The translations under genes were made by a program, and so were the position numbers. This document shows, piece after piece, positions 33,796 to 35,997 of a DNA stretch of 40,860 nucleotides; positions within the stretch are counted from its first letter, which is position 1, and every line of letters starts with the position of its first letter. The stretch is taken from NCBI GenBank assembly GCA_965603615.1, contig CBFDDQ010000001.1:1-40860 (forward strand). Reading direction: 5' to 3'. Under the pieces are notes generated by a model. It had not been told where the DNA came from. It saw nothing but the letters and a program-made list of their open reading frames with translations, and did no database searches. Source of the DNA: Candidatus Woesearchaeota archaeon. Lineage in GTDB: Archaea; Nanobdellota; Nanobdellia; SCGC-AAA011-G17; JACPIM01.

Positions 33796-35997
33796 ATGAC
33801 ACAATTAATTATTTCAGAAAAACCTACTGCAGCGCAAAAAATAGCTGCAGCACTAGCAGATAAAAAACCAAAAAAAATCTTAGTAAATAAAGTTCCATAT
33901 TACGAATTAGAACATAAAGGAAAAAAAATTATTGTAGCTTGTGCAGTGGGTCATCTTTACGGGTTAAAACAAGAAACAGGAAAAAAATCTGAATATCCAG
34001 TTTTTAACATTGATTGGTATCCAGCTTCAGAATTTAGAAAAAGTGCAGCTTTTACAAAAAAATATCTTACAATTATTAAAAAATTAGCTAAAGAAGCAGA
34101 TGAATTTATTGTAGCAACAGATTATGATATAGAGGGGGAAGTTATTGGTTTAAACATAATAAAATATGCTTGTAAACAAAAAGATGCACAAAGAATGAAG
34201 TTCTCCACTTTAACAAAAAATGATTTAATTAAATCTTATGAAGAAAGAACTAAACATATTGATTGGCCTCAAGCAAATGCCGGCGAAGCAAGACATAAAA
34301 TGGATTGGTTTTTTGGAATAAACCTATCAAGAGCTCTAACAACTGCAATTAAAGAAACAGGATCATTTAAACTTATGTCTACAGGAAGAGTTCAAGGACC
34401 AGCATTAAAATTAATTGTGGACAAAGAAAAAGAAATTAAAAAATTCAAGCCAGATCCTTACTGGGAAATCCAATTAACAGGAAAAATAAACAAAGGAAAC
34501 ATTATAACTTATCATAAATTAGGAAAAATATTCGAAAAAAAGAAAGCTAGTAATATTTTTAACAAATGTAAAAAAGAAAAAAAAGCAGAAGTACTAAAAG
34601 TTGAGAAAAAACAATTTAAATCTTATCCACCTATACCTTTTGATTTAACTTCTTTACAAATTGAAGCTTACAAATGTATTAATTTTTCACCGAGAATTAC
34701 CCTTTCAGTTGCACAAAAGCTTTATACAAGAGGATATATATCATACCCAAGAACTTCTTCACAGCCATTACCCCAAAGTATTGGTTATAAAAAAATAATT
34801 ACTTCTTTATGAAGATTATACCCAAGAGAAGCAAATTTTTTACTAAAAAAACCAATACTAAAACCAACTTATGGTAGAAAAACAGATCCAGCACACCCTG
34901 CAATATATCCTACAGGAATTATACCAAAATTCAAGAATACTTATGAAAAGAAACTTTATGATTTAATTGCAAGGAGATTCTTGGCTGTATTTGGAGAACC
35001 TGCTTTAAGAAAAACTATAATAGTAACTTTAGATTGTAAAAAAGAAAATTTTATTGCAAAAGGAACAACTACTATTAAGCAAGGTTGGTTTGAACTTTAT
35101 GGCAGACATGTAAAACTAAAAGAAGAAGAACTTCCAAAAATTAAAGAAGGAGATATTTGTCAAATTAAAAAACTTGAAAAATTAAATAAAGAAACCTCCC
35201 CACCAAAAAGATATACAGAATCTTCTCTGATTAAAGCCCTAGAAAAAGAAAACCTGGGAACAAAAGCTACAAGATCCCAGATAATAGAAACTTTATACAA
35301 TAGAGGGTTTATTGATGAAAAAGCAATACAAGCAACAGAGCTTGGTATAAGAACAGAGGAAACTTTAGAAAAATATTCTCCTAAAATAGTAGAATCTGCT
35401 TTAACAAGACACTTTGAAGAATCAATGGAAAAAATAAGGAGTGGTAAAGAAAAATCAGAAAAAGTATTAAAAGAATCTAAAGAAACAATAATTGAAATCA
35501 CAAAACAATTTAACAAGCATTTAAAGCAAATAGGTAAAGAACTTCTTGCAGCTCATAAAGAAACAAGAAATGTTATGACTTTCGTTGGCCAGTGCCCTAA
35601 TTGTAAAAAAGGAGAGTTGCATATAAGAAGAGGAAAATTTGGTAATTTCATTTCATGTAATAAATATCCTGATTGTAAAACTATATTTTCTGTTCCACAA
35701 GTTATTGTTAAACCAACCAAGGAAATATGTGAAACTTGCAAACATCATAAAGTTAAAATTATTAAAAAAAGAAGAGCACCGCAGATAATTTGTATAAATT
35801 CCAAATGTCCAGAAAAATTAAAAAATTATACAAAAAAACAAAGAAAAGAATTAGAAGATATAGAACAAGGAAAAAAAGAAAAAAAATGTCCTAAATGTGA
35901 TTCTCCTTTAAAATTAAGAAAATCTATTTATGGTGCATTCTTAGGTTGTAGTAATTACCCAAAATGCAGATATATAGAAAAAATTAAGCAGAAATAA
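33796..35997 (+). CDS. topA: DNA topoisomerase IA, interrupted by a single in-frame TGA at 34810..34812
   Basis: Toprim motifs LIISEKP and ATDYDIEGE. Active-site Tyr in GYISYPRTSS. After the TGA the same frame continues with the conserved [10 protein letters not shown] and LYDLIARRF. The C-terminal topo-I Zn ribbons are CPNCKKG...CNKYPDCK and CPKCDS...CSNYPKCR. Confidence 0.85.

Follow-up and report, generated by a model that had tools for sequence, protein, structure and literature searches.

A single TGA codon interrupts an otherwise intact topoisomerase III gene in a Woesearchaeota archaeon

The gene for a type IA DNA topoisomerase (topA) in a Candidatus Woesearchaeota archaeon is interrupted by one in-frame TGA codon. 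The gene lies on contig CBFDDQ010000001.1 of assembly GCA_965603615.1, and the 40,860 nucleotides of this contig (C1) are the stretch of DNA analysed here, referred to below as the window. The assembly is a metagenome-assembled genome (MAG) of 806 kb in 53 contigs, with 29% G+C and an estimated completeness of 84%. The public names of its closest proteins point to the Woesearchaeota/Nanoarchaeota, among the DPANN archaea. The interruption looks like a nonsense lesion of the ordinary kind, in which one base has changed and the topoisomerase III gene is intact otherwise. On balance, we favour the reading that it is a genuine and very young nonsense (null) allele caught by metagenome assembly, and that it is no programmed recoding site. 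The original prediction had offered sequencing error, recent pseudogene, and programmed read-through or recoding as options; the first two cover what is likely to be the truth, and the third is unsupported.

By direct translation, the frame from 33796 to 35997 on the forward strand comprises 733 codons, and the TGA at 34810-34812 (codon 339) is the only stop inside it. The original prediction described this arrangement correctly. The two topA open reading frames (ORFs), 33796-34812 and 34981-35997, share one frame and have only this TGA between them. The 168 nucleotides behind the stop translate in frame into 56 codons with the same letters as first given, including the H-P-A-I motif, and the first in-frame start among ATG, GTG and TTG is the TTG at 34981, 56 codons downstream. 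The features of the gene, with the evidence for each in parentheses, are as follows.

33796..35997, + strand: full topA frame, archaeal topoisomerase III-type (type IA) (translation; Pfam Toprim, Topoisom_bac and two Zn_ribbon_Top1 matches)
33796..34812, + strand: N-terminal ORF as assembled, 338 amino acids, Toprim plus the core, ending 21 residues past the putative catalytic tyrosine (ORF list, Pfam)
34744..34746, + strand: codon of Tyr317 in the S-Y-P-R-T-S-S motif, the putative catalytic tyrosine (invariant column; aligns with the active site of 6K8N)
34810..34812, + strand: in-frame TGA, codon 339; TTA (Leu) in the same-genus relative, Ser or Ala in others (sequence, alignments)
34813..34980, + strand: 56 start-less codons of conserved topoisomerase sequence, which would be translated only upon read-through of the TGA (translation)
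34885..34905, + strand: D-P-A-H-P-A-I motif with His367, missing from any TTG-initiated product (invariant or nearly invariant columns D364, A366, H367, P368, A369 and I370)
34971..34983, + strand: AGGAG, then 5 nucleotides, then the first in-frame start, TTG at 34981 (sequence)
34981..35997, + strand: C-terminal ORF as assembled, 338 amino acids, with the remaining core and two zinc ribbons (ORF list, Pfam)

Judged by its sequence, the gene is an archaeal topoisomerase III-type member of the type IA topoisomerases. The Pfam Topoisom_bac match runs on over the TGA, with profile positions 3-181 in front of it and 205-411 behind it (PF01131, E=4.8e-55 for the N-terminal part and 3.3e-60 for the C-terminal part); Toprim precedes it (PF01751, E=3.7e-13) and two zinc ribbons follow. 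The two ORFs are no chance juxtaposition. The closest solved structure is the topoisomerase III of Sulfolobus solfataricus (6K8N), matched by sequence over residues 4-585 (E=2.8e-100), and identity to full-length Woesearchaeota orthologues ranges from 50% to 79%. Both S316-Y317-P318-R319-T320 and A366-H367-P368-A369 are invariant in the alignments and align to 6K8N, which is consistent with a catalytic role of Tyr317. With the S. solfataricus enzyme (6K8N/6K8O) the gene has in common the Toprim domain, the Topoisom_bac core, S-Y-P-R-T, D-P-A-H-P-A-I and the zinc ribbons; the difference is that TGA at codon 339 precludes a full enzyme as written. The AGGAG ahead of TTG 34981 is probably fortuitous, because it is created by the conserved Arg-Arg codons (R393/R394). 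A second intact topA, which the original prediction had named as a finding that would speak against it, was sought in the 84%-complete assembly, and the window gene is the only type IA topoisomerase gene there.

The read-through protein was aligned with two sets: 19 orthologues in species genomes of the order, and its 19 closest proteins in a collection of 5.8 billion proteins. The stop lies in a variable column. Among the 19 closest proteins this column holds Ser 14 times, Ala four times and Leu once, and in the 19 species genomes it holds mostly Ser. The residue that aligns with the stop, which the original prediction proposed to look up, is thus Leu, Ser or Ala. The column is 28 residues before His367, in the variable stretch between Tyr317 and the H-P-A-I motif. 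Where the window reads ACT TCT TTA TGA AGA, the same-genus relative reads ACT GCT TTA TTA AAG, and at the sequence level a single T-to-G change, TTA to TGA, suffices to explain the stop. One base substitution would thus have turned codon 339 into TGA, the ancestral codon being TTA (Leu) or possibly TCA (Ser). Relative to uninterrupted relatives of 79% identity the gene has no insertions or deletions. Private changes at otherwise invariant columns number three upstream of the stop and one, a conservative change, downstream, which is no more than is seen in the relatives. The absence of insertions and deletions and the scarcity of private changes downstream fit a very recent event. Apart from the TGA, the gene is undamaged in these comparisons.

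The same alignments bear on the idea that the TGA lies within a small mRNA intron of the bulge-helix-bulge type or within a translational bypass gap, to which we give practically no credence. The genome does contain many tRNA introns, but between GYKKII and YPREA every codon of the window gene has its counterpart in the uninterrupted relatives of 79% identity, any excision would delete the conserved L338 and Y342, and the predicted local fold contains no bulge-helix-bulge motif. Since there is no inserted sequence relative to the relatives, an mRNA intron and a bypass gap are both excluded.

The distribution of internal stops in topA was examined across 221 topA-carrying species genomes of the order, the genome of the window included, and every match flagged for an internal stop was translated. 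Most of the flags correspond to the natural terminator. True lone internal stops are present in 6 of the 221 topA genes, one in each, and the other 215 orthologues have the uninterrupted frame for a full enzyme that the window gene lacks. Five of the stops are TAA and one is TGA, and all fall within the first 351 codons, at about the following residues of the window protein.

G206: residue 95, TAA
G126: residue 146, TAA
G171: residue 264, TAA
G212: residue 277, TAA
window gene: residue 339, TGA
G157: residue 351, TAA

In the other 220 species genomes of the order codon 339 is never a stop; in the same-genus relative it is TTA. The interrupted topA genes are all singletons, each with the stop at its own position. 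G206 seems to be 3 codons shorter beside its stop than a family relative when the translations are compared by eye, which would mean real decay. As controls we used two other genes of the window in the same genomes, the large subunit DP2 of DNA polymerase D (PolD; 1142 amino acids) and Cdc48 (762 amino acids). One true internal stop, a TAA in G128, was found among the approximately 150 DP2 matches listed, and none among the 150 Cdc48 matches listed. A TGA flag in DP2 of G215 proved to be no internal stop, being located upstream of the start. Pooled, the controls show 1 lone stop in approximately 262,000 codons, and the rate in topA is about ten-fold higher per codon (binomial P = 0.010 with the window gene and 0.023 without it, exposures being approximate). 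Such a gene-specific excess is unlike uniform sequencing or assembly noise and therefore favours real, transient nonsense alleles. These results suggest that the topA stops of the order are probably real and transient null alleles and not pure noise, although the census statistics, with seven events in total, are thin and artefact is a strong rival. We infer that the allele in the window is likewise real, as opposed to an error.

The organism may in reality carry TTA or TCA, a sense codon, at this site, the TGA having arisen in sequencing, assembly or consensus building, either by an error of base calling or polishing or by an assembler that followed a rare defective read path. We regard this as less probable than a real allele and as a serious contender all the same. 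A single-base lesion is in keeping with it, the gene being single-copy, strongly conserved and without any other flaw, and the MAG fragmented and incomplete. Moreover, even the gene for DP2, an essential subunit of the replicative polymerase, has an internal TAA in the MAG G128 (see above), so spurious or minority stops do enter deposited MAGs. The truncated ORF is in no other assembly of the public collections: an exact look-up of the 338-residue ORF and a pattern scan of metagenome-contig DNA with NNN at the stop both returned no match, which says little, as close records may be missing from these collections. Against an artefact, errors should hit genes equally, and topA has about ten times the lone stops of DP2 and Cdc48 per codon. 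The longest contig also runs on for 6 kb past the site, which is at no ragged end, and substitution errors rarely survive into an Illumina consensus.

A separate search was made with the 338-residue N-terminal fragment, a query that favours fragments of about its own length. It returned more contigs in which a single TAA interrupts the frame, at about residues 345, 358 and 363, the G157 contig again, and frameshift-type breaks at about residues 285, 300, 481 and 563. A stop hot spot after the catalytic tyrosine, formed by five lineages with stops at residues 339-363, was considered and dropped; it is absent from the unbiased census, and we do not claim it because four of the five cases came from the length-biased search.

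Other departures from a plain topA frame were seen in relatives. Many Woesearchaeales topA genes have open frames of about 1050-1300 amino acids with large in-frame insertions (1.3-2.7 kb), presumably inteins. Three insertion sites recur, near residues 117, 363 and 492 of the window protein; examples are G012:C17:1688-5320, G023:C20:1396-5133 and G029:C25:106-3795, and further cases are found in G004, G069, G078, G092, G133, G146, G150 and G168. In a Nanoarchaeota MAG (L055; GCA_043806015.1, JAZDHH010000007.1, 1501-3680) the core (563 amino acids) and the zinc-ribbon tail (164 amino acids) are separate ORFs that overlap by 7 nucleotides in different frames, as the result of a frameshift or of a natural split between the domains. 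In another contig (L052; JGI 3300022690, Ga0247388_10008811, 3560-3844) topA switches at about residue 357 to unrelated, stop-rich sequence 260 nucleotides before the contig end, possibly at the margin of an insertion or in a chimeric end of the contig. The control gene DP2 also has long frames in many relatives (among them G015:C22, G043:C22 and G014:C1), of about 1600-1690 amino acids, in which the match ends at about residue 900, suggesting an insertion of intein size; in G022, G053 and others the DP2 match is in two parts that meet at about residue 457.

If the stop is real, it could also be maintained because active enzyme is still made, through UGA read-through or from fragments that assemble. 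We consider this unlikely. UGA is generally the leakiest of the stop codons, and the downstream half of the gene shows no relaxed constraint. Both interrupted genes found in this genome (the second is described below) carry TGA, with about 27% expected per random nonsense change; two such events have a probability of about 0.07, and two of two is not significant. In four other Woesearchaeota contigs a single in-frame TAA lies in the same variable stretch, 6-24 codons downstream of the window site, but this cluster came from the length-biased fragment search, and the positions in the unbiased census are scattered over the residues listed above. No stop is common to two species, and therefore nothing has been maintained over time. 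Programmed read-through would be expected to leave a stop conserved in relatives, and here the same-genus relative has TTA and no other species of the order has the stop. The gene for seryl-tRNA synthetase (SerRS), 2 kb upstream, terminates in the identical TGAAG context. We also considered a stimulatory RNA structure. The RNA at the stop folds with -14.8 kcal/mol (z = -4.2 against shuffles), but folds as good are found in 15% of native 91-nucleotide windows of the genome, and better ones elsewhere in topA. The candidate was rejected, as the fold is unremarkable among native windows; the same-genus relative lacks its outer helix.

An enzyme in two pieces has a precedent in Nanoarchaeum equitans, whose topoisomerase III is encoded by two genes, NEQ045 (408 amino acids) and NEQ324 (172 amino acids) (PMC3655853, PMC10969213). 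The likeness is that of a type IA topoisomerase of a Nanoarchaeota-related lineage in two pieces. The N. equitans pieces, however, are separate genes with their own starts, split at about residue 408 of 580 (PMC10969213), whereas the window gene is contiguous and in frame, with one stop at another site. In the window gene there is no start for 56 codons after the stop, and a TTG-initiated product would lack the H-P-A-I motif. In the other lineages the next starts are about 12, 38, 55 and 156 codons downstream, with no consistent restart. A split enzyme with its own start at the split and inheritance within a lineage is thus not what we see. Taken together, the two kinds of stop, the differing codons and the lack of a consistent restart codon argue against recoding and against a conserved split gene. 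Krah et al. reportedly described, in 1996, a two-subunit reverse gyrase of Methanopyrus kandleri, by which a split type IA fold can work; it is another enzyme with another split site, and both of its subunits are independently translated genes. It is also conceivable, and in our view rather doubtful, that lone stops are specifically tolerated in Woesearchaeales topA, by leaky termination, by complementation between fragments or by polyploid shelter of null alleles. If so, the TGA in the window would be one case of a recurrent gene-specific phenomenon, neither a dead gene nor an error.

Decoding of UGA as selenocysteine, or as Trp or Gly through an altered code or a suppressor tRNA, is very improbable. 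TGA is a normal terminator throughout the genome, which bears out the view in the original prediction that global reassignment was unlikely, and excludes such reassignment. Among the ORFs of at least 150 amino acids, 145 of 607 (24%) end in TGA, and the frames close soon after, with a median read-on of 5 codons behind TGA, compared with 6.5 behind TAA and 8 behind TAG. Eight of the 37 window genes end in TGA, including those for PolD-DP2 and SerRS, and the TGA of PolD-DP2 sits where its orthologues end.

Other conserved genes with an in-frame TGA, a check suggested with the original prediction, were sought genome-wide. A codon-usage screen for read-through genes was too noisy, as antisense frames score as coding, and it was replaced by a screen for adjacent ORFs in the same frame with one stop between them. 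It found only one other interrupted conserved gene, at C13:12894-14309 (+), which is one of 11 B12-binding radical-SAM paralogues. Its TGA, at C13:13533-13535 (2034-2036 of locus L021), is located inside the CxxxCxxC motif (GCS*QCTFC, the asterisk marking the stop); homologues have Gly, Tyr or Phe at this site, and the usually invariant preceding Pro is Ser here. The gene is probably a decaying paralogue, of the dispensable kind expected to gather null mutations. Gly occurs at the TGA site in its closest radical-SAM homologues, which would suit a UGA read as Gly, but the topA site has Leu, Ser or Ala and the radical-SAM site Gly, Tyr or Phe, so that no single amino acid fits both. Nor do the aligned topA homologues carry the Cys or Sec that would be expected of a selenoprotein.

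The tRNA complement points in the same direction. A search of the 84%-complete assembly with the Rfam tRNA-Sec model RF01852, also a check proposed at the outset, reached at best 26.3 bits where the cut-off is 47; its matches are ordinary tRNAs. No tRNA with a UCA anticodon is among the 26 tRNA matches, a set that is incomplete and includes several multi-intron tRNAs that could not be confidently parsed; such a tRNA is likely to be absent, although in a set of this kind, rich in multi-intron genes, a suppressor could be missed. One call seemed to contradict this. At C3:2539-2628 (-) (locus L022), aragorn in intron mode reports a 'tRNA-SeC(tca)', and otherwise an undetermined tRNA with a 2-base anticodon. 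The anticodon arm consists, in order, of CTCGG-CTTCGG, CTGATATAGGAGAA and A-CCGAG, and it contains a canonical bulge-helix-bulge, in which the bulges GGC and AAA lie on either side of the helix CTTC/GGAG. Splicing between the second and the third base of the bulges takes out a 14-nucleotide intron at position 37/38 and yields tRNA-Arg(UCG), and the call was rejected. The acceptor stem of this tRNA is 7 bp long, and its variable arm is short. Automated callers can thus mislabel an intron-bearing archaeal tRNA-Arg(UCG) as a selenocysteine or opal suppressor tRNA, which could feed false claims of recoding. Systems that do recode UGA (selenocysteine in Methanococcales; genetic codes 4 and 25) resemble the present case in having an in-frame UGA in a conserved gene; they differ from it in that here no tRNA-Sec was found in the assembly, the aligned columns are not of Cys, Trp or Gly in topA, and UGA is a normal stop. 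Elsewhere in the tRNA set, a tRNA-Lys(UUU)-like sequence, which the tRNA model recognizes, directly follows tRNA-Asp at C10:20849-20906 (+) and ends in the T-loop, without the 3' strands of the T-stem and acceptor stem; possible readings are an intron in the T-loop, a split tRNA and a relic.

If the stop is a young null allele, the product as written would be a 338-residue fragment with Toprim and Tyr317. It should be inactive because it lacks His367, the remaining core and both zinc ribbons. Full-length enzyme would be made only by incidental near-cognate read-through of UGA, and the cell would have to rely on topoisomerase VI and gyrase. Genes for Top6A and GyrA are present and intact in the genome, which is consistent with compensation for lost topA by these two enzymes. 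Across the order, null topA alleles would arise, be tolerated briefly and then be lost. As a separate observation, the GyrA gene of this genome (C8:5077-7206, +) has a frame of 1071 amino acids with an in-frame insertion of about 810 nucleotides between Pfam DNA_topoisoIV positions 84/79, which looks like an intein near the active-site region.

Several points weigh against a null allele. topA is retained almost without exception in the order (106 of 107 high-quality genomes), which indicates strong long-term selection; the gene is therefore not dispensable in the long run, and a fixed null would be surprising. Gyrase is also present, and bacteria with gyrase tolerate the loss of topoisomerase I poorly. 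A T-to-G change is unfavoured by AT-biased mutation and is a known type of miscall in some Illumina chemistries. The excess in the census amounts to 6 events against 1 with approximate exposures, and an error of consensus or assembly, or a minority allele picked by the assembler, could still account for the stop. Compared with young pseudogenes and nonsense alleles of reduced, host-dependent genomes, the window gene is alike in having a lone inactivating point change that is unshared with relatives, and the second lesion of this genome sits, as in such genomes, in a multi-copy paralogue. The difference is that the gene hit here is almost universally retained.

A one-base nonsense change in a MAG is a routine annotation problem, of little consequence alone. 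The gene is properly annotated as "topoisomerase III, internal stop", neither as two genes nor as a candidate for recoding. If read data bear out the approximately ten-fold excess of lone stops in topA, these tiny symbionts would be able to do without topoisomerase III for a time despite its retention in the long run.

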